Source: a virus
Lineage: Duplodnaviria > Heunggongvirae > Uroviricota > Caudoviricetes
Virus record (IMG/VR): IMGVR_UViG_2778261172_000006
Span: 1-37,263 of that record
Direction: 5' to 3' (one strand)
DNA length: 37,263 nucleotides
Shown here: positions 6,186 to 18,098 of the stretch, piece by piece
How the letters are laid out: each line of letters starts with the position of its first letter
Position numbering within the stretch: position 1 is the stretch's first letter
Program-made: the position numbers and the translations under genes
The notes under the pieces: model-generated
The model's database searches: none
What the model was told of the DNA's origin: nothing
What the model saw: only the letters and a program-made list of their open reading frames with translations

Positions 6186-9008
6186 ATGACGACAGAGTAC
6201 ATCAGGGACTGGCAACAACCGCGCCACGCAGTAGGGCGTGAAGGAACGGGGATCCCCACTCCTGAATCCGCGCTTTCCTCCTGGCTGGATGCCTACCGGG
6301 CAGAGAACGAGCGCCACCAGGAAAAGGCTGATGCGGCGTTCTCCGCCACGCCACTGGGCAACCTGATTAATAAAAGCCTGGACGCACAGGAAAAACAGGA
6401 CAAAACCATCACGCTGGCAGGAGAAGCCAGAAGACAGACACGCGGCACGGTGGATGAAGCCATGGCCTCGCTGCGCCTGCTGCCGTCCTATCTGCGCGAT
6501 CCGCTTATTCGCCACCTCTCCTTCCTGCGCAAAAAACAGGAAGCCGATCTCCGGAAAGAAAAAAATGCCTGGCAGGCAGAAAACTATGCACGCGGAACCC
6601 TGCGCAAGATATTCGTTCGCATTAACCGTGCCGACAGTCGCTGGCTGACACCGGGTTATCGCTCCCTCGCCGGACGTGAGCGTCTGGATGATTTGCTTTA
6701 CCTGCCGCAGCTCAATAAACACCAGATACAGACACTGGCCACCATGACAGCGGCAATGTTCAGCAGCACCTTCGAAACACTCTGTGATGGTTTCGGTGCC
6801 AAAGATGGCGAGCTGACCATGGAGGTGGCACTGAAGGCGTATCAGATGCTGGCCCGCATGGCGTTACACCTGCACACCGTGCCGCCGCATTACGAAGCAC
6901 TGACAACAGACAAAGACCGGAGGAACGAACCGGACACGGAGCTGCTGCCGGGCGCAATCCTTCGTCTGACCTGTGCGGAATGGTGGAAACGCAAACTGTG
7001 GCTGTTACGTTGCGAGTGGCGGGAAGAACAACTCCGTGCCGCCTGTCTGGTTTCCAGAAAAACATCGCCCTATCTGAGCCAGGACGCGTTAAGCGAGTTT
7101 CGCGCACAGCGCGAGAAAACACGCGATTTTCTGAAAAGTTTCATGCTGGAAAACGAAGACGGGTTCACGATTGATCTCGAGACAGTGTATTACGCGGGAG
7201 TAAGTAACCCGGTTCACCGTAAGGCAGAAATGATGGCCACCATGAAGGGGCTGGAACTTCTGGCCGAAGCCCGTGGCGACAAAGCGGTGTTTCTGACTGT
7301 CACCTGCCCGTCAAAATACCACGCCACAACGGAGAACGGTCATCCGAACCCCAAATGGAACGGGGCCACCATGCGCGACTCCAGCGATTACCTGGTTAAC
7401 ACGTTTTTTGCGGCGGTCCGCAAAAAACTGAACCGCGACGGTCTTCGCTGGTATGGCATCCGCACGGTGGAGCCTCACCATGACGGCACCGTGCACTGGC
7501 ATATGATGGTCTTTGCTCATCCGGAAGAAATCGACAGCATCGTGGCCATCACCCGCGATATTGCCATTCAGGAAGACCGCCACGAGCTGGGTGATGATAT
7601 TACCCCACGCTTTAAGGTGGAGTATGTCGACGGCTCAAAAGGCACACCAACCAGCTACATCGCCACCTACATCGGAAAGAACCTGGACAGCCGCGCCGTG
7701 GATGGCATCGACCCGAAAACGGGCAAGCCACGCGTTGACCACGAAACAGGAAAATCAATGACCGAGAGCGTGGAACGCGCCATCGGCTGGGCGCGCCTTC
7801 ACCGGGTCCGCCAGTTCCAGTTCTTTGGCATTCCCTCCCGTCAGGTGTGGCGTGAACTCCGCCGCCTTGCCAGCCAGATGGCACGCAACCCGGAAGGCCC
7901 GCAACGGCTGAAGAATGACGCAATGGATGCGGTACTCGCTGCCGCCGATGCCGGGTGTTTTGCCTCCTACATTGAAAAACAGGGCGGCGTACTTGTTCCA
8001 CGCAAAGACTACCTGATTCGCACCGCCTACGACCTCGCAGATGAGCCGAACGATTACGGCGAACAGAGCGTACAGATTTACGGGATCTGGTCACCACTCA
8101 TCGGGGAATCCTCCCGTGTGTGCACGCACCCGGATAACTGGAAGCTGGTAAGACGTAAACCGGAAGCGGAAGACAACACCCGCGAAAATGGTTTTGACCT
8201 TCAGGGCGGCCCTGCCGCCCCTTGGACTCGTGGCAATAACTGTCCCCGTGTACAGGAAACGGACAACAACGGGACAGAACAGCCGGAAGAACGGCCAGCA
8301 CCGTGGCCGCAGCTTCCTGACGGCATTGAAGTGAACGAATGGATGCGCTCACTGAAACGGCACGAACGCCGGGCGCTGATGCGTTCGCTTCGTGACAAAC
8401 AGGCAAAAAACAGCAGTGATGAAATGCAGAGCTGGACACAGAGCCGCAAACAGCAGCGGCCTTTGCCTGATAACCACGAATTACTCGCTAGAGAATGGCG
8501 GGAGTCTGCTGAATCTCTCGGCCTGCATATCGGTGAACAACAAATGCAGCACCTGTTACGGGGCGGCAGTCTGTACGTTGACGGCAGCATCATTGCACCG
8601 CAGGGATTTGAAATTGTACGCAAACCGGATACCCGCCCGGACAGCCGAATCACGCAGCTCTGGCAACGCCTGAGCCGTAATCACGGCGTAAGCAGCACGG
8701 AGATCCGCCATAACCCGGTCGCCAGCTATCTGGAACAGCTGGGGGCATCAGACCCTGAAGCCGCCGCACGCCTGGCATCCACACTTCAGCAGGACCAGAA
8801 CACCATGAAAACACCCGTTACCGTGCTTTCTGACATGCTGCGCGCCATCCGCGACGCAGAGCACGCACAGAGAATCAGTGAAACCACTGAACGCGCCCGC
8901 CGCAAAGCAGACCTGCTGCGGGGTGGCCTGACCAGTGGAAACAAAAAACAGACAGAAACGGGATTCACAAATCCCGTAAATGAGCAAAAAACGCGCCGCG
9001 ATATATGA
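6186..9008 (+). CDS. A: replication initiation endonuclease, P2 gpA family, with long C-terminal extension
   Basis: 940-aa ORF; HxH-type motif (TVHWHMMVF) and P2 A-like core around residues 330-600; position between early genes and the cargo region. Confidence 0.88.
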   Translation: MTTEYIRDWQQPRHAVGREGTGIPTPESALSSWLDAYRAENERHQEKADAAFSATPLGNLINKSLDAQEKQDKTITLAGEARRQTRGTVDEAMASLRLLPSYLRDPLIRHLSFLRKKQEADLRKEKNAWQAENYARGTLRKIFVRINRADSRWLTPGYRSLAGRERLDDLLYLPQLNKHQIQTLATMTAAMFSSTFETLCDGFGAKDGELTMEVALKAYQMLARMALHLHTVPPHYEALTTDKDRRNEPDTELLPGAILRLTCAEWWKRKLWLLRCEWREEQLRAACLVSRKTSPYLSQDALSEFRAQREKTRDFLKSFMLENEDGFTIDLETVYYAGVSNPVHRKAEMMATMKGLELLAEARGDKAVFLTVTCPSKYHATTENGHPNPKWNGATMRDSSDYLVNTFFAAVRKKLNRDGLRWYGIRTVEPHHDGTVHWHMMVFAHPEEIDSIVAITRDIAIQEDRHELGDDITPRFKVEYVDGSKGTPTSYIATYIGKNLDSRAVDGIDPKTGKPRVDHETGKSMTESVERAIGWARLHRVRQFQFFGIPSRQVWRELRRLASQMARNPEGPQRLKNDAMDAVLAAADAGCFASYIEKQGGVLVPRKDYLIRTAYDLADEPNDYGEQSVQIYGIWSPLIGESSRVCTHPDNWKLVRRKPEAEDNTRENGFDLQGGPAAPWTRGNNCPRVQETDNNGTEQPEERPAPWPQLPDGIEVNEWMRSLKRHERRALMRSLRDKQAKNSSDEMQSWTQSRKQQRPLPDNHELLAREWRESAESLGLHIGEQQMQHLLRGGSLYVDGSIIAPQGFEIVRKPDTRPDSRITQLWQRLSRNHGVSSTEIRHNPVASYLEQLGASDPEAAARLASTLQQDQNTMKTPVTVLSDMLRAIRDAEHAQRISETTERARRKADLLRGGLTSGNKKQTETGFTNPVNEQKTRRDI
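8956..8980. repeat. 25-bp palindromic element, copy 1 (AAACGGGATT-CACA-AATCCCGTAAA)
   Basis: 8-bp inverted repeat ACGGGATT/AATCCCGT with 4-nt spacer, inside the 3' end of A. Confidence 0.7.
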
Positions 9009-9028: not shown

Positions 9029-9053
9029 AAACGGGATTTCAGAATCCCGTAAA
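9029..9053. repeat. 25-bp palindromic element, copy 2 (AAACGGGATT-TCAG-AATCCCGTAAA)
   Basis: Near-identical copy 73 bp downstream of copy 1, 32 bp upstream of the parM-like start. Confidence 0.7.
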
Positions 9054-9084
9054 CGATTAATTAATCAACATAAGGAAAAGCGAC

Positions 9085-10044
9085 ATGAAAATTTGTATCG
9101 ACGACGGCTCCACCAACATCAAGCTGGCATGGACTGAGAACGGCGAACGCCGCAACGCCATCAGCCCGAACAGCTTCAAGTCGGAATGGTCTGCGCCGTT
9201 CGGTGGCACGCAGCCCGCGAACTACATGCTTGATGGCGTGCGCTATGGTTTTGATCCGGTCAGCGATCGCTTTGTCCAGACGACCGACACGCAATACCAG
9301 TACAGCGATGTGAATGTCATTGCCATTCATCACGCGCTGGTCAAATCAGGCATCACGCCACAGGAGGTGGATGTGGTTGTCACCCTGCCACTGAGCGAGT
9401 ATTTCGACACAAACGCACAGCCGGACATGGCCAACATCAACCGCAAAAAAGCGAACGTTATGCGCCCGGTGGAGTACCAGAACGGCGAAGCATTCACTAT
9501 CCGTAACGTGCGGGTTATGCCTGAATCCATTCCGGCTGGCTTTAAGGCACTGGCTGACATGAGTCCGTTTGAATCCCTGCTGATTGTGGATTTAGGCGGA
9601 ACCACGCTGGATGTGGCAAAGGTTCAGGGGCAACTGGCAGGTATCAGCCAGGTGTTTTGCGATCCACACGTAGGCGTTTCCCTGATGGTCGATGCCGTGC
9701 TGTCGGTGATGGCCGCTAACGGTATGCGTACCAGTCACCACATCGCCAATACCATTATCGAACATCGCCATGATGAAGCCTGGTTGCGCCAACACATCCA
9801 CAATGACGCGCATTACGCCAGCCTGATGGCGGTTATTCGTGAAAAGGAAGAAACACTGAAACAACGCGTGATCCGCGCGCTGGCGGGTTTTTCGGGTTAC
9901 GGACGGGTGATGGTTGTCGGTGGCGGGGCGGAGATTGTGGCACCCGCTATCCGCGAAGCCTGCGGAGTTAATGCGACTTTCATCGCGGACGGGGTGCCAC
10001 AGTTTGCTCTGGTTAATGGGCTGTACGCAATGGACAAGGAGTAA
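9085..10044 (+). CDS. parM: ParM/StbA-like actin-type segregation ATPase
   Basis: 319 aa; N-terminus MKICIDDGSTNIKLAW, SDVNVIAIHHAL, VMPESIPAG, DLGGTTLD and VVGGGAE match remembered plasmid R1 ParM motifs along the whole length. Confidence 0.85.
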   Translation: MKICIDDGSTNIKLAWTENGERRNAISPNSFKSEWSAPFGGTQPANYMLDGVRYGFDPVSDRFVQTTDTQYQYSDVNVIAIHHALVKSGITPQEVDVVVTLPLSEYFDTNAQPDMANINRKKANVMRPVEYQNGEAFTIRNVRVMPESIPAGFKALADMSPFESLLIVDLGGTTLDVAKVQGQLAGISQVFCDPHVGVSLMVDAVLSVMAANGMRTSHHIANTIIEHRHDEAWLRQHIHNDAHYASLMAVIREKEETLKQRVIRALAGFSGYGRVMVVGGGAEIVAPAIREACGVNATFIADGVPQFALVNGLYAMDKE

Positions 10045-10048
10045 ACCA

Positions 10049-10363
10049 ATGACGACACCAACCAGACGGATAAGTTTCTATCTGAAGCCCGCCGCCGTCA
10101 ATAGTGAACGGAAGGCGTGTAATTACCTCGACAGCCTGCCAGCCTCTGAACGCAGCCGCGCGCAACGCGCGGCCTTTCTGGCCGGGCTGGCACTCATAAA
10201 ACGCGATCCTGCATTTGCCTATTGGTTGGCCGAATGGCCGGAAGAAGGAGCTGCGCCAGCAAAGAATAATATTCAGAGTAAATATGCCAGCACACCTGCC
10301 ACCGGAAGCAATCACAGCACTAGCGAGATAAGAAAGAACATTCAGTCATTTTTCCCGGAGTGA
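10049..10363 (+). CDS. parR: ParR/StbB-like centromere-binding adaptor
   Basis: ATG at 10049 with AAGGAG RBS; RRISFYLKP...CNYLDSLPASERSRAQRAAFLAGLAL parallels R1 ParR (RRTIAFKLNP...CDTLDSIPQGERSRLNRAALTAGLAL). Confidence 0.75.
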   Translation: MTTPTRRISFYLKPAAVNSERKACNYLDSLPASERSRAQRAAFLAGLALIKRDPAFAYWLAEWPEEGAAPAKNNIQSKYASTPATGSNHSTSEIRKNIQSFFPE

Positions 10364-11025: not shown

Positions 11026-11282
11026 CCACTTTAACCGACAAAGAACTGATTAAAGAAATCAAAGAGCGCATAGGCAGCCTAGACGTGAGAGACAATATTG
11101 AACGCCGTGCTTATGAAATTGCTCTGGTATCGCTGGAAGCAGAGCCAGTAGCATGGATGCATGTAAATAACGGCATCGGAATACCAGCAATAACAAGGAG
11201 TAAAGAGGTTGCAGAGAGTTGGTTATCAAAAGGCTGGTATGTCCAACCCTTACATCTAGCCCAGCCTGCATCAAAGCTATAG
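11022..11282 (+). CDS. hypothetical protein (86 aa)
   Basis: ATGA overlap with upstream ORF; shares motif IALVSLEAEPVAW with the 10383 ORF. Confidence 0.5.
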   Translation: MTTLTDKELIKEIKERIGSLDVRDNIERRAYEIALVSLEAEPVAWMHVNNGIGIPAITRSKEVAESWLSKGWYVQPLHLAQPASKL

Positions 11283-11292
11283 AAATGAGCCA

Positions 11293-11319
11293 AAACGCCC
11301 TCTTCCAGGGCGTTTATTT
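11293..11319 (+). terminator. intrinsic terminator after the parMR-linked operon
   Basis: 9-bp stem AAACGCCCT/AGGGCGTTT with 5-nt loop followed by TATTT. Confidence 0.6.
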
Positions 11320-11322
11320 CAA

Positions 11323-11349
11323 TGCACAATAGTGCACAAATTTGCACAA
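11323..11349. repeat. three TGCACAA heptamers phased at exactly 10 bp (11323, 11333, 11343)
   Basis: Direct reading; a fourth copy at 11415-11421 and a GGATCCGT direct repeat at 11393-11411 lie nearby. Confidence 0.7.
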
Positions 11350-11848
11350 TTTTTTTGAACGACTTTTTGCCCTTCCGGCCCGCGGGGCGACTGGATCCGT
11401 CAAGGATCCGTGCGTGCACAAAAAAACGCGCTTTTTCTGCGCGCAGGTGACGGGGGAACAGCCCGCGTTTCAGGGGGTAAATAGCATTCCCTGAACGATG
11501 TCGCAGCGACACAACAGAATGGCTGTCTTTCTCACGCTGAGCGTAAAAAAGACGTGAGGGCTTTTGATTTGATGGGGTGGCAGATAAGGCCGTCAAAATC
11601 GCACTGAGGCGGCGAGAACATGCAGTCAGCGCAGTGGGATTGCGTAAGAGTCTGACCGTCGATGATGGAAATAAGCAGGAAAGCGTCGTGAAATTATCTG
11701 ACTGATACAGGAGCTGGAGAGTCGGGGCATAAATTTTTTATGCCCCGGCGAAGCAGCAGACAAGCGAAGCGCGTCAGCGATACGGCACCTTGCCGACCAT
11801 ACTTCATAAGTGCAAAATACGAGCAAAGAAATCAATGGAGGCTGTCTT

Positions 11849-12373
11849 ATGGTCATTAATTACAAGCAGTTAAGAGAAAAACGGGAGCAGGTAAAGGAGA
11901 GCTTTCGCCGCAATGAAGATCTGACCCCGCTTGTACGCCTTGCCCAGGGCATTGTTGACGCTTATGAAATCTCGCTGGAGCTGCCATCACAGACCTGGAC
12001 AGATAGCGACGGTAATCGCCAGCATTACATTTCATGCGGACTGGAAGCAGCCGAAGGATTTCGCAGAATGCCTTTATCCCAGATCCCTGCCGCAACCCCC
12101 AAAGCAAGAGGCAGCAATGATGAGCGAAAACTGACTTTCAGCATTGAGACAGTGGTTGACGACACACCTGGCGAAGTCGCGTTCGTGCACACTCCTGTTT
12201 CGATCGCAATGTATAACGATGAAATACAGGTTCGCGTTAATAATAATATCGTGCCACTTAAAGAAGGTAATTCACCCTACACCACCGTTTGTGAAGCCAT
12301 TCAATATTACGTTCTCTCTGAAATTGATAATCTCAAGCCTGACGGCACCCAGAAAATGGTTCAACTCTGGTAA
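11849..12373 (+). CDS. hypothetical protein (174 aa) between cos-proximal region and portal gene
   Basis: ATG at 11849 with GGAGG 8 nt upstream; convergent with Q and ending in a strong hairpin terminator. Confidence 0.55.
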   Translation: MVINYKQLREKREQVKESFRRNEDLTPLVRLAQGIVDAYEISLELPSQTWTDSDGNRQHYISCGLEAAEGFRRMPLSQIPAATPKARGSNDERKLTFSIETVVDDTPGEVAFVHTPVSIAMYNDEIQVRVNNNIVPLKEGNSPYTTVCEAIQYYVLSEIDNLKPDGTQKMVQLW

Positions 12374-12379
12374 AAAGGA

Positions 12380-12404
12380 CAGCCCCATCACGGGGCTGTT
12401 TTTT
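12380..12404. terminator. bidirectional intrinsic terminator between the 174-aa ORF and Q
   Basis: CAGCCCC-ATCA-CGGGGCTG hairpin flanked by AAAAA upstream and TTTTTT downstream. Confidence 0.65.
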
Positions 12405-13434
12405 CATCAAGAAGAGCATAAGAGTTAAAACGGATCACCTCTTCGCCAAGCCAGTCATTGATATGCTTCATGGCCTCCATGACGGGCATCAGCTCGTTAA
12501 TTGCGTAAACCCGCGCGGCCTTCTCCACATCACCAAACGCACTTTTTTCACCCGGCATCGCCCCCATCAGTTGCGGCGGAACGCGGTGCGCAGCCAGCAC
12601 GTCATCACGGGATGCCGCCTTAACATTCATGAACTCATCTTTTGCGGTGATCTGCTGGAACGGCAAAATTTGCACACCTTCTTTGCCCCCGTTGGGCGCA
12701 TGAATGAGCACGTTTTTAAACGCACCACCACCACGTGCACCCTGTAACGTTTCTTTCAGGGAGTCCATGCTTTCGCGGTTTACCTGTGCTGCACCGATGT
12801 AGATGATGCACCCGGCGTGGGATCCGTTGTCGTAATACAGTTTTCTGAACATGTCCGCCGAATGAGACAGGCTGGCCGAGAGTAATGCGCCGAGATATTC
12901 CGGCATGCCGTAGATTTCCTGGTTAATATCCGGATTCATCAGGTGGCACACTTTGCCAGGGCGAAACTGGAACGCGTCCTTGCCATCCTGCACATACCAC
13001 CATGATTCAAGATCGCTTCCGCGTCGCATGTATTTCGCCAGTGCGTGCCGTAATTTAAGCGGTTCGCCGAGCATATTGCTTCGAAGCTCAAGGAATGCGT
13101 TACCGAACACAAACCAGTCCAGCGCCAGCGCCGAGAAATCCTGCCGGGAAAGCAGCGGGTGCGGGATGTAGCAACCGAGTAATACATTGCGCTTAAAGTA
13201 AAGCGCAGACTGATGCCAGGACGTTTGCCGGGCAGCTCTCGCCAGACCGTACCAGTCCACCGGGGTTTCATACCACCGCCCGTTATCAGCACAGTACATA
13301 TTGTCCAGCAGGTCATGCCCGGTCAGGCGATAAGGACCATCAAATGTGAATGCACTGAGCGATGATTCTTTCCTGAGCGCATCAGCGAGATCAATGCGTG
13401 AACTCATGCGCACTTTTTTATTTTTTCTGCTCAT
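12388..13434 (-). CDS. Q: portal protein (P2 gpQ family)
   Basis: 348-aa ORF; start overlaps P stop on the minus strand; P2 Q-like sequence and position next to terminase. Confidence 0.9.
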   Translation of the reverse strand: MSRKNKKVRMSSRIDLADALRKESSLSAFTFDGPYRLTGHDLLDNMYCADNGRWYETPVDWYGLARAARQTSWHQSALYFKRNVLLGCYIPHPLLSRQDFSALALDWFVFGNAFLELRSNMLGEPLKLRHALAKYMRRGSDLESWWYVQDGKDAFQFRPGKVCHLMNPDINQEIYGMPEYLGALLSASLSHSADMFRKLYYDNGSHAGCIIYIGAAQVNRESMDSLKETLQGARGGGAFKNVLIHAPNGGKEGVQILPFQQITAKDEFMNVKAASRDDVLAAHRVPPQLMGAMPGEKSAFGDVEKAARVYAINELMPVMEAMKHINDWLGEEVIRFNSYALLDEKTAP

Positions 13435-15185
13435 CAGAACTCCATAACCGTGAAACGCTCGTTTTCTCCTTCGCCGCCAATCGGTTCGTTAATGACAGCA
13501 AGCATGGTTGCCCACGCAAGGTCGCCGTGGCTGATCCCCCTCGCTCGGTCCGTTTCGTAAGTGATAAAGCCGCCCGGTGTTTTCACCTTACGCACGGCGT
13601 TAAAGGCCGCGACCAGCTCGCGTTCGGCGCGATCGTATTCCCACCGCCCGGCACGCATTATTTGCAGCATTTTCAGTACCAGCGACCGTTTTGATGACAG
13701 CGTGAAGGTGTACGGAATAGCAGCAGGGAAAAACCGTTTCACTATCTGATAAACAGCCTCCCCGTTCCCGCCCGTCACATCAATCCCGATGTGTTCCACG
13801 TTATAGCGACACGTGAACTCTTCAATGACTCTGGCCTGTTCTTCAAACTCCAGCCCCTGAACGCGTCGCGTCTCCACCGTTCGAAAACGGCCACCAGGAA
13901 CAGCCGGAGGAACCACCACGGACACAGCACCGCTGTCGCCGTTGCCACTGCTGCCGTTTGCGTCATACCCAATCCATACCGGACGATTCCCCATCGGGCG
14001 GGGAGCAAAAGGTTTCCAGTCTTTCCAGTCGTCGTATCCATCAACACCGCAGCCAATCAGGATATTCAGGTTAAATGCCGATTCCCCTTCGCGGACAAAC
14101 TCACACATATAGAGATTGCGGAACTCGTCTTCGGTGTTTTCATCACGAATTTCATCAATATCGGTGTGTTTCCAGCCGTGATTAACCACATCTTCCAGCG
14201 TGACAATTTGCCGCCACGTCCGGTCAGGGCAGATAAGCCCGTTATGCAGCGTTTTCCAGTCCACAGAAAAACGCTGGCGTTTATGCGAGGCCTTTTTCTC
14301 GTTCCAGCGGTCGCCGTTCCAGTAGGCGTATGCCTCGTGCGTTTCGGTGGATGGCGTGGAGAAGTAGGTGCGCCGCAGTCCGCTGAGGGTTGCCATAGCG
14401 CCAGCCACCTTGCGCAGTTCAGCAAAGCGACTGACCCAGAAAAATTCATCAAAATAAAAATTGCCCGTATAGGACTGTGCCGACGCAGCAGAAGTGCCGA
14501 GAAAATGCAGCTCTGCGCCGTTGGAGAGGATGATTTTATCACCCCCTTTCAGCTCCACATCAACTTCAGCCGCAGCCTTCTGAATAATGCTTTTAAACTG
14601 GAACGCCTGACGACGCGACGCAGACAAAAAAATCTGGTTACGCTGGTAAGGTTGCGCCACATCGTCACGCAGCGCCATCAGCAGTGCTTCCTGTGCAAAA
14701 TACCAGGTCGCCCCAATCTGTCGGGATTTCAGGATCATCCTGTTACGTATCCCGGCTTCCCTGCAAAGGGTCAGGGAGTCAAACCAGCCCCGCTGATGCC
14801 ACTCCAGCCTGCTGATGATTTTTTCCCGCAGTGCGGCAATCTGCTCCGGCGTGAAATGATTTTTGAGTTTTTTCGCCCGGCCTTTCTTTCCTGTGGCCGT
14901 CGCATCCGGCTGGCCATCATGCAGTTTTTTAAGCTGCCGGGTCAGCAGGTCTATTTCCTTAAAGTCACCACCTGTTTTATTCTGTTTTTCAGTAAGCTGG
15001 ATGAGGCGCGCATCGATGGACTGCGTGACACGCTGCACGGGTGGCGTTTCATCCCACTGGTCGCGTTTTTTCCACGCATAAATCGTGTTCGGGTTTATTC
15101 CCATCAGACGTGATATTTCTGCGGGCGGATAACCCTGCCAGTAAAGTTGCCGCGCACGCTGGCGCACAAAAGCGTCCTGAATCAT
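13434..15185 (-). CDS. P: terminase large (ATPase) subunit (P2 gpP family)
   Basis: 583-aa ORF with GGGGGAG RBS; P2 P-like sequence; divergent from O. Confidence 0.93.
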   Translation of the reverse strand: MIQDAFVRQRARQLYWQGYPPAEISRLMGINPNTIYAWKKRDQWDETPPVQRVTQSIDARLIQLTEKQNKTGGDFKEIDLLTRQLKKLHDGQPDATATGKKGRAKKLKNHFTPEQIAALREKIISRLEWHQRGWFDSLTLCREAGIRNRMILKSRQIGATWYFAQEALLMALRDDVAQPYQRNQIFLSASRRQAFQFKSIIQKAAAEVDVELKGGDKIILSNGAELHFLGTSAASAQSYTGNFYFDEFFWVSRFAELRKVAGAMATLSGLRRTYFSTPSTETHEAYAYWNGDRWNEKKASHKRQRFSVDWKTLHNGLICPDRTWRQIVTLEDVVNHGWKHTDIDEIRDENTEDEFRNLYMCEFVREGESAFNLNILIGCGVDGYDDWKDWKPFAPRPMGNRPVWIGYDANGSSGNGDSGAVSVVVPPAVPGGRFRTVETRRVQGLEFEEQARVIEEFTCRYNVEHIGIDVTGGNGEAVYQIVKRFFPAAIPYTFTLSSKRSLVLKMLQIMRAGRWEYDRAERELVAAFNAVRKVKTPGGFITYETDRARGISHGDLAWATMLAVINEPIGGEGENERFTVMEF

Positions 15186-17297: not shown

Positions 17298-18098
17298 ATG
17301 ATTACTCCTGCACAGCAACACTGGCAGAACGTGATGGCACAGCGCGCAGGCCGGGCGAATGAAGGCGTGGACCACGCCGCGCGTACCGCGCATGAAGAGG
17401 TGCTGTATCGTCTGCGTCTGGCACAGGCCCGGCTTAAGGGCGTACAGGCCAGAAGCGCGAAAGCCGCCATCAAAAAAGAGTTATTGCCGGACTTTTCCGG
17501 CTGGATTGAGGGAACGCTGGAGGCTGACGGCGGGCAGCAGGATGAAGTGATTGCCACGCTGATGGTGTGGGCGATTGACTGCGGCGATCTTCCGCTGGCG
17601 CTGCGTATTGGTGCGTATGTGGTCCGTCATAACCTCATTATGCCGGATAACTTTGGCCGTACTGCTGCCACGGTACTGACCGAAGAAATCTGCAACCCGG
17701 TACTGACGCAGGCCGGGACGGATGCCGACGCGGATTTATCCGCCTTTATCGAACCACTGGATACCCTCCGGGAGATTGTCACCGACCAGGACATGCCGGA
17801 CGAAGTGCGCGCCAAATTATGCAAGGCGTGTGCCTTTGCCCGTCGTGGCCTGACCGATGCAGACAGCATGGCCTCATCACTGAAGCTGCTGCGCGAAGCG
17901 ATGCACCTGAACCCGAACGCAGGTGTGAAACGCGAGATTGCAACCCTTTCCCGCGCCCTGAAAAAAGCCGATTCCGCAGCCGCACCAGAAGACGCCAGCA
18001 CACAGCAGACGCAGGACGAAAGCAGCAAAAGTAAAAAGACAACGCGGAAGCCTGCAACACGAAAAACCACCGCGACGCAGAAAGCGAAGCGCGGTTAA
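17298..18098 (+). CDS. M: terminase small (endonuclease) subunit (P2 gpM family)
   Basis: 266 aa; DMPDEVRAKL and AGVKREI motifs as in P2 M; basic C-terminal tail. Confidence 0.85.
   Translation: MITPAQQHWQNVMAQRAGRANEGVDHAARTAHEEVLYRLRLAQARLKGVQARSAKAAIKKELLPDFSGWIEGTLEADGGQQDEVIATLMVWAIDCGDLPLALRIGAYVVRHNLIMPDNFGRTAATVLTEEICNPVLTQAGTDADADLSAFIEPLDTLREIVTDQDMPDEVRAKLCKACAFARRGLTDADSMASSLKLLREAMHLNPNAGVKREIATLSRALKKADSAAAPEDASTQQTQDESSKSKKTTRKPATRKTTATQKAKRG

Follow-up and report, generated by a model that had tools for sequence, protein, structure and literature searches.

Cos sites in phages P2 and 186 and in the satellite P4 reportedly generate 19-nt 5' cohesive ends, and a 55-bp core of these three sites is said to have been described by Ziermann and Calendar in 1990. 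P2 packages its DNA from monomeric circles and not from concatemers. The concept of a 55-bp core is cited in the literature (PMC5694545, PMC9594776), and the sequences that flank the core in P2 and P4 raise cosmid transduction more than 1000-fold, with no reason given for this effect (PMC9594776). P4 and its helper P2 otherwise have little in common besides cos (PMC9122126, PMC9594776). Here we analyze a 37,263-nucleotide stretch of Caudoviricetes DNA (IMG/VR record IMGVR_UViG_2778261172_000006, positions 1 to 37,263; hereafter the window) with a focus on a noncoding gap at 11283-11848 that contains four copies of the heptamer TGCACAA. The window is about 96% identical to phage P88 and its relatives and can be assigned to the P88 type (genus Xuanwuvirus) of P2-family prophage. 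We conclude that this gap very probably holds the cos packaging site of the P88-like prophage, and that its TGCACAA copies are lineage-specific recognition repeats to which the phage terminase would bind. A first-pass annotation of the same DNA had expected cos and terminase recognition elements here by position. That expectation is borne out by a homologue of the P2 cohesive end, by an adjoining TGCA..AAAA element and dyad, and by a position in the genome like that of cos in P2 and 186.

All four heptamers are on the + strand, starting at 11323, 11333, 11343 and 11415 (spacings of 10, 10 and 72 bp), as the first-pass annotation had listed them. The phased pattern TGCACAA-N3-TGCACAA-N3-TGCACAA is seen a single time in the window and never in 100 dinucleotide-preserving shuffles, with up to three mismatches allowed. 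The heptamer itself is not enriched (8 copies window-wide versus 9.85 expected), and the signal therefore resides in clustering and phasing and not in the word. The suggestion that all four copies would face one side of the helix holds for the three that are 10 bp apart and only approximately for the fourth, for which a spacing of 72 bp amounts to about 6.9 turns at 10.5 bp per turn. Two further observations made from the sequence are also correct, namely a GGATCCGT direct repeat (11393-11400 and 11404-11411) and a set of GC-rich palindromes beside the array, which consists of CCCGCGGG within 11376-11389, a GGATCC pair and the dyad ACGCGC-TTTTTCT-GCGCGC at 11426-11444.

Alignment with IMG/VR relatives locates the predicted cohesive end inside the gap. 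Some divergent relatives have ...TGCACAAAAAGAGGCGCGTTTAGCGCGCA|GGCGAGGCGGGGG..., the opening of the P2 cohesive end GGCGAGGCGGGGAAAGCAC, and intermediate forms such as GGCGAGGCGGGGGAGCAAG connect GGTGACGGGGGAACAGCCC of the window to the P2 end. Alignment on relatives of the GGCGAGGCGGGGG type thus identifies GGTGACGGGGGAACAGCCC at 11446-11464 as the counterpart in the window. The first-pass annotation had found no match to the P2 cohesive end; a homologue does exist, and it was missed because of six substitutions. Upstream of GGTGACGGGGGAACAGCCC there is TGCA..AAAA followed by a GC dyad, as in P2, 186 and P4. This alignment predicts a top-strand nick at 11445/11446. If overhang length is the same as in P2, the bottom strand would be cut after 11464 and the 19-nt 5' overhang GGTGACGGGGGAACAGCCC would result. 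An early match of TGCGCGCAGGTGACGG to P2 sequence to the right of the cohesive end (TGCGCGCTGACGG) was dropped, as distant relatives that read ...GCGCGCA|GGCGAGGCG... show that GGTGACGG is the start of the cohesive end. A profile of the cos core, built on positions -40 to +25 relative to the nick, finds a homologous site about 5.2 kb to the left of the gene for the small terminase gpM in about 60 of 80 gpM-anchored loci, and near-identical relatives match this nhmmer profile at E=1.5e-13. P2, 186, P4 and the IMG/VR relatives also have a dyad in this position next to the nick, of different sequence and the same form. Read on the minus strand (11444 to 11426), the dyad of the window scores in a terminator scan as a terminator-like hairpin followed by T7, and the dyad plus A/T run reads as an intrinsic terminator that would halt leftward transcription from the portal-terminase side right at cos. 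By eye only, the P2 record (L006) shows the same form of dyad and A/T run at about 1556-1575.

The position of the repeats relative to the nick was compared across the family with two collections of relatives. Scanning IMG/VR for the three-repeat pattern gave 120 loci, with a P2-family context for 108, and an independent sample of 80 genomic loci was collected via gpM. The cos site was located by the profile on -40 to +25 only, so that the distal repeats were excluded from the search, and 52 regions were retained after dereplication. In P2 the word TGCAT is found at -123, -111, -101 and -29 from the nick, and in 186 and P4 at -124, -111, -101 and -29, with all of these offsets counted from annotated ends that were experimentally derived. 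The repeats of the window align with the cos regions of P2 and 186 at matching offsets. Among the 52 regions, the degenerate word YGCAYR is present on the + strand at -124/-123 in 25, at -113/-111 in 33, at -103/-101 in 38 and at -31/-29 in 37, and its background frequency is 0.006 per position. All three distal positions are filled in 22 of the 52 regions versus 0 of 76 shifted controls. These three upstream same-orientation YGCAYR repeats, which the window possesses, constitute a feature derived in this analysis rather than one taken from a published definition. The four same-orientation TGCACAA copies appear to be this lineage's version of a fixed-offset cos repeat set for which TGCAT is the version of P2, 186 and P4.

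Information content over the 52 regions exceeds background only from about -125 to about +32. This profile indicates that the site has a footprint of about 160 bp that is lopsided to the left, with the first repeat as its left edge. Additionally, in most P88-like phages that have other upstream genes, homology starts exactly at the first TGCACAA (11323), and the conserved block among relatives extends from there to about 11781. The segment 11323-11349 is most likely the distal recognition array of cos, where it would mark the left boundary of the site. Related phages do carry the repeats, which are found in P88-like phages and in phiT5282H, and in many of the 52 family regions as YGCAYR words at the peak offsets. 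For example, the three-copy array is kept in Enterobacter, Klebsiella, Pantoea, Symbiopectobacterium and other relatives, and Enterobacter phiT5282H retains TGCGCAGGTGACGGGGGAACAGCCC as well as all three repeats including spacers and the fourth copy plus A tract.

Elements between the repeats are conserved to differing degrees. The T7 tract that follows the third repeat mirrors the A7 that follows the fourth, TGCACAATTTTTTTGA is conserved throughout the TGCACAA clade, and the T7 tract may function as an intrinsic bend. The fourth TGCACAA with its A tract is the counterpart of TGCATTAAAACC in the 55-bp core common to P2, 186 and P4, and information content in the 52 regions is high from -29 to -21 with the consensus TGCA..AAA. 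The GC-rich middle element occupies the place of the CGCCAG..CTGGCG-CGG hairpin of 186, P4 and many relatives. A GC dyad is located at about -80 to -55 in most family members, and the sequence of the middle element varies even between close P88-like phages. The GGATCCGT repeat is confined to the P88 lineage and lost in more distant relatives, and is therefore unlikely to be a core element.

Fixed offsets also bear on the notion of the array as a weak intrinsic terminator formed by GTGCA-CAAATT-TGCAC and T7, or as a functionless product of chance slippage, to which we give almost no credence. A terminator scan does flag 11332-11347 with its T run on the + strand, and TGCA is self-complementary, so neighbouring copies can pair. 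However, the putative stem has only 5 bp with three GC pairs, a far stronger hairpin lies 20 bp upstream, and offsets are conserved in clades that are unable to form the hairpin or the T run (P2, 186, P4 and Pantoea-type loci), while the absence of the phased array from all shuffles argues against chance. Outside the P2 family, eight unrelated viral contigs in IMG/VR (L024, L029, L034, L040, L057, L086, L087 and L111) have at least three phased TGCAC(A/G)A words, as with TGCACAATTT, which occurs four times upstream of a promoter-like TTGACA in L040. These sets are probably independent operator or iteron arrays.

The first-pass annotation had left room for a role of the array in partition or replication, and neither is supported by the distribution of the array, which occurs without ParM and ParR, occurs together with gpA proteins that are 31-35% identical to that of the window, and is mirrored in P4-like satellites. 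A partition role would make the repeats the parC centromere of the ParM/ParR type II system encoded at 9085-10363, with ParR dimers binding the 10-bp repeats and coupling the DNA to ParM filaments. ParM and a ParR-like StbB protein are indeed encoded 1-2 kb upstream of the array, and type II ParR proteins, as in R1 and pSK41, recognise short direct repeats that are arranged in tandem and recur about every 10-11 bp. Nevertheless, 25 of the 63 IMG/VR loci with full coverage from gpA to the repeats have the array but no ParM or ParR, and phiT5282H has the array but no annotated ParM or ParR within 4 kb upstream of it. Loci that do encode ParMR have it anywhere from about 0.4 to 4 kb away from the array. 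In the window the array is not upstream of parM but about 960 bp downstream of parR, beyond three open reading frames (ORFs) and a terminator-like hairpin. The same array geometry is also seen in P2, 186 and P4, for which no ParMR is annotated in the cos-flanking stretches of the records examined. A better parC candidate is available in the form of two copies of the palindrome AAACGGGATTnnnnAATCCCGTAAA around the gpA stop, upstream of parM. This 24-bp element, AAACGGGATT(CACA/TCAG)AATCCCGTAAA, is found at 8958-8981 and 9032-9055, 74 bp apart and flanking the stop codon, and the pair is conserved in every ParM-bearing relative regardless of ParR allele. The pair is likely the true parC or an operator of ParMR, and we consider it very improbable that the TGCACAA array is. 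Comparison of ParR alleles (about 50% versus more than 90% identical to that of the window) reveals that neither the parM-upstream palindromes nor the TGCACAA repeats change with the allele. Most relatives (L013-L123 in IMG/VR) have a ParM that is 95-99% identical to that of the window and a ParR that is only about 50% identical, with a few ParR proteins at 70-98%; at least two ParR alleles are present behind a near-invariant ParM and invariant upstream palindromes.

A replication role would cast the repeats as origin iterons or as a control site for the gpA-type initiator (6186-9008). Short phased direct repeats beside A/T tracts are typical of origins, and the array does lie downstream of the replication gene. 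However, identical arrays are found with gpA proteins that are only 31-35% identical to that of the window as well as with gpA proteins that are more than 90% identical. P2-type gpA nicks an origin that is located within gene A, which also counts against this role. P4 relies on its own alpha protein for replication and its ori repeats are annotated elsewhere, yet it has kept the cos-proximal repeats. We regard an origin or initiator-control function as having hardly any likelihood.

Retention of the repeats in P4-like satellites was followed with cos regions found via the satellite gene product Psu, accepted down to 62% Psu identity, which gave 75 regions with 48 distinct sequences. The three distal TGCAT copies and the -29 copy are kept in these regions with one single-base exception (L226), while the spacers diverge. 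All 75 regions (from satellites L216-L295 in IMG/VR) are of the TGCAT type with P2/186-type cohesive ends, and none is of the TGCACAA type. P88-like phages may therefore not be helpers for the P4-like satellites that were sampled. One apparent satellite with TGCACAA repeats (L126) was rejected, as its truncated portal gene identifies it as an ordinary prophage fragment. In several satellites the same left arm is paired with differing cohesive-end variants (GGCGAGGCGGGGAAAGCAC and GGCGTGGCGGGGAGAGCAT).

The type of repeat tracks the terminase clade (gpM and the N-terminal helix-turn-helix of the large subunit gpP) and not the type of cohesive end. Every locus with a gpM at least 52% identical to that of the window has GCACRA repeats, while every locus with a gpM closer to P2 has no GCACRA, and most of these loci carry GCAT. 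A group from Photorhabdus, Pectobacterium and Citrobacter with intermediate gpM proteins has mixed TGCACAA and TGCATAA repeats. Loci L153-L168 have P2-like GGCGAGGCGGGGG ends and yet possess mostly GCACAA-type repeats together with a window-like terminase. The gpM of the window is 35-36% identical to P2 gpM and 186 R, and its gpP is 44% identical to P2 gpP. Domain matches in gpP are PF06056 Terminase_5, HTH_23, Terminase_6N and Terminase_6C, with a homeodomain-like helix-turn-helix at residues 6-63. The correspondence between its putative recognition helix and the repeat word is as clean as that for gpM: N-x-N-T-[IVL]-Y-x-W-K-K-R pairs with TGCACAA, x-A-T-V-H-S-W-K-K-R pairs with YGCATGA, and R-P-T-V-Q-S-W-K-Q-R pairs with TGCAT(T/G)A.

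This covariation also helps in weighing whether the repeats belong to cos without being equivalent to lambda cosB, serving instead to complete packaging in the manner of lambda cosQ (second nick, termination) or to bind an architectural protein other than terminase. The repeats flank the nick on what becomes the right-end side of virion DNA; lambda cosQ is likewise upstream of cosN; and the A/T tracts and dyads suggest an architectural role. On the other hand, lambda cosQ is a single short element and not a 3+1 array spread across 100 bp, and no match to the integration host factor (IHF) consensus WATCAANNNNTTR is present within 11283-11848 with one mismatch allowed. Moreover, the motif changes with the phage's own terminase clade within one host species, as both P2 and P88-like phages infect E. 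coli, and this change points to a phage-encoded reader rather than to a host protein. We judge a termination or purely architectural function unlikely and favor terminase recognition. The match of offsets to TGCAT in P2, 186 and P4 and the dependence of the word on terminase clade agree with the first-pass suggestion of such a role, in which the repeats would be bound by terminase.

Under terminase recognition, several DNA-binding domains of the terminase holoenzyme would engage the repeats along about 100 bp to one side of the nick, and the presumptive reader is gpM, the small subunit, or else the helix-turn-helix at the N-terminus of gpP. The A/T tracts and GC dyads would probably aid DNA bending or wrapping, and the resulting complex may place the gpP nuclease at the nick-adjacent dyad. 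As a tentative and somewhat doubtful extension, the sequence-specific reader in P2-family phages may be the homeodomain-like helix-turn-helix at the gpP N-terminus (PF06056) and not the small terminase. If so, divergence of a gpP code would set packaging specificity between co-resident P2-like prophages and would determine which helpers P4-like satellites can exploit, and P88-like phages may then be invisible to the satellites sampled.

A number of observations weigh against terminase recognition or limit how it can be framed. No locus with discordant gpM and gpP clades was found, so the two candidate readers are inseparable here, and the covariation rests on few deep clades and hence on few independent events. 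A PDB sequence search with gpM returned no solved homologue, and the literature consulted reports no DNA binding by either gpM or gpP from any P2-family phage. The first and second repeats are 10 bp apart in some clades and 13 bp apart in others, and the family as a whole therefore does not keep to strict helical phasing. The literature consulted on the P2 core makes no mention of upstream repeats, with any prior description by Ziermann and Calendar in 1990 falling outside that scope. Additionally, no deposited phage record begins at the predicted end, and the ends of P88-like phages are predicted from sequence; nor does the literature consulted contain an account of a cos site or of virion ends for these phages. 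The only linear P88-like record, LR595891 (Xuanwuvirus P88_4B11), breaks 77 bp to the left of the predicted nick. This break corresponds to window position 11368/11369, between the T-rich spacer with its repeats and the GC-rich middle element (position 1 of L002 and the end of L004). The start of LR595891 was rejected as a mapped end because of this 77-bp distance from the cos homologue, the lack of a terminal repeat and the absence of any counterpart in P2, 186 or P4; the break could be an arbitrary assembly break or could reflect some property of the ends that is not understood.

Features of the cos region and of the surrounding genes are given in Table 1. The cos block is located between the accessory region downstream of gpA and the genes for portal Q, large terminase P and scaffold O. 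In P2 and 186, cos is immediately past the 3' end of the portal gene, and the gene order is that of the window. The stretch from gpA to Q is known as a cos-adjacent hotspot for accessory and defence genes (PMC9122126).

Table 1. Features of the predicted cos region and its gene context in the window; offsets are counted from the predicted nick.
Feature	Position	Strand	Remarks
gpA-type replication protein	6186-9008	+	
ParM	9085-10044	+	PF06406/PF21523
ParR/StbB-like protein	10049-10363	+	PF10784
Three small accessory ORFs	ending at 11282	+	
Gap under study	11283-11848		
Stem-loop AAACGCCCT/AGGGCGTTT	11293..11315	+	perfect 9-bp inverted repeat, then T-rich tail
Three TGCACAA at 10-bp spacing	11323..11349	+	-123, -113, -103
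T7 tract directly after third repeat	11350..11356	+	TTTTTTTG / CAAAAAAA
GC-rich middle element	11369..11411	+	GCCCTTCCGGCCCGCGGGGCGAC plus GGATCCGT direct repeat
Fourth TGCACAA, running into A tract	11415..11426	+	TGCACAAAAAAA; -31
Nick-adjacent dyad ACGCGC-TTTTTCT-GCGCGC	11426..11444		counterpart of P2 CCGCCCCG-TGAA-GCGGGCGG
Predicted 19-nt cohesive end GGTGACGGGGGAACAGCCC	11446..11464	+	13/19 identical to annotated P2 cosL GGCGAGGCGGGGAAAGCAC
Right flank of cos	11465..11722		inverted repeats 11469-11495, 11525-11553
Stem-loop CGGGGCATAAA-TTT-TTTATGCCCCG	11723..11747		perfect 11-bp stem
174-aa accessory ORF	11849-12373	+	
Portal Q	12388-13434	-	
Large terminase gpP	13434-15185	-	one candidate repeat reader
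Scaffold O	from 15307	+	
Small terminase gpM	17298-18098	+	PF05944, E=5.6e-37; other candidate repeat reader

Two hairpins flank the conserved site. The one at 11293-11315 likely terminates the accessory operon upstream. It falls slightly beyond the edge of the conserved cos block, and relatives with other upstream genes lack it. The one at 11723-11747 directly follows the portal gene in relatives (the Q stop comes next), and tQ and tW are annotated at the equivalent place. By position it would be the equivalent of terminator tQ of P2 and tW of 186. Between the predicted cohesive end and this second hairpin, the right flank of about 260 bp is approximately 94-96% conserved in P88-like phages only, and phages of the phiT5282H and P2 types have unrelated sequence there. 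Two small hypothetical ORFs are annotated within this part of the conserved block in the record of P88. Scans of 11283-11848 gave no sigma-70-like promoter and no Rfam match.

In the window the second hairpin is separated from Q by an ORF encoding 174 amino acids, which has a GGAGG ribosome-binding site and no Pfam match and is inserted between the tQ-like hairpin and the portal gene. Only some relatives (e.g. L018, L023, L027, L050 and L055) have this ORF, at 94-99% identity, and it behaves as an accessory gene in the known cos-proximal hotspot.

The segment that contains the repeats and cos (window 11310-11480) is common in E. coli: of 5426 complete genomes, 1107 (about 20%) have it at 90-100% identity, with up to four copies per genome. 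Despite the plasmid-type ParMR system of the phage, 1254 of the 1255 places are chromosomal. No annotated feature underlies the segment in these genomes among the matches listed.

With these results, positions can be given for cos and for the likely ends of virion DNA in a prophage type that about 20% of complete E. coli genomes carry. They also indicate that a functional P2-family cos appears to reach about 125 bp to one side of the nick, well past the often-quoted 55-bp core, and the distal repeats may account for the better performance of P2 and P4 cosmids with longer cos fragments (PMC9594776). A distal array whose word changes with the terminase clade would provide a concrete, swappable determinant of specificity, and the difference in repeat word suggests a barrier that decides which helper phages P4-like satellites parasitise. 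Current understanding is not overturned. Elements of this kind, in which cos carries repeats bound by terminase, are well known, and this one is common. What is added is the placement of the cohesive end, a fixed-offset architecture that is family-wide, and a testable link between repeat word and the DNA-binding domains of terminase.

Three known systems invite comparison. Like type II parC sites, e.g. that of plasmid R1, the locus has direct repeats with a period of about 10-11 bp in a prophage that has ParM and ParR genes. Unlike parC, the array has only 3+1 copies, is not upstream of parM, and is present without ParMR in many relatives, with the canonical parM-upstream site held by the palindrome pair. 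Resemblance to lambda cosB (R3-I1-R2-R1, bound by the small terminase gpNu1 beside cosN) is closer in kind: both have short repeats over about 100 bp on one side of the nick, which here would likewise assemble terminase by the nick, with a specificity that co-evolves with the phage terminase. In contrast to cosB, there is no sequence relationship, the repeats of the window all have the same orientation with no IHF consensus between them, the array is on the opposite side relative to the terminase genes, and the large subunit has its own N-terminal helix-turn-helix as a possible reader. The cos sites of P2, 186 and P4, whose ends are mapped where those of the window are predicted, differ from it in the repeat word (TGCAT(T/G) versus TGCACAA), in the spacing from first to second repeat (12-13 versus 10 bp), and in a middle GC element and whole right flank that are unrelated in sequence, and the P2 cohesive end differs at 6 of 19 positions. 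They are alike in genomic position to the left of portal gene Q and, for P2, in a G-rich 19-mer that starts with GG(C/T)GA and is identical at the remaining 13 of 19 positions. To the left of the nick they share with the window the order TGCA..AAAA, GC dyad and nick, as well as three more same-orientation repeats with a TGCA core at about -124, -112 and -102.

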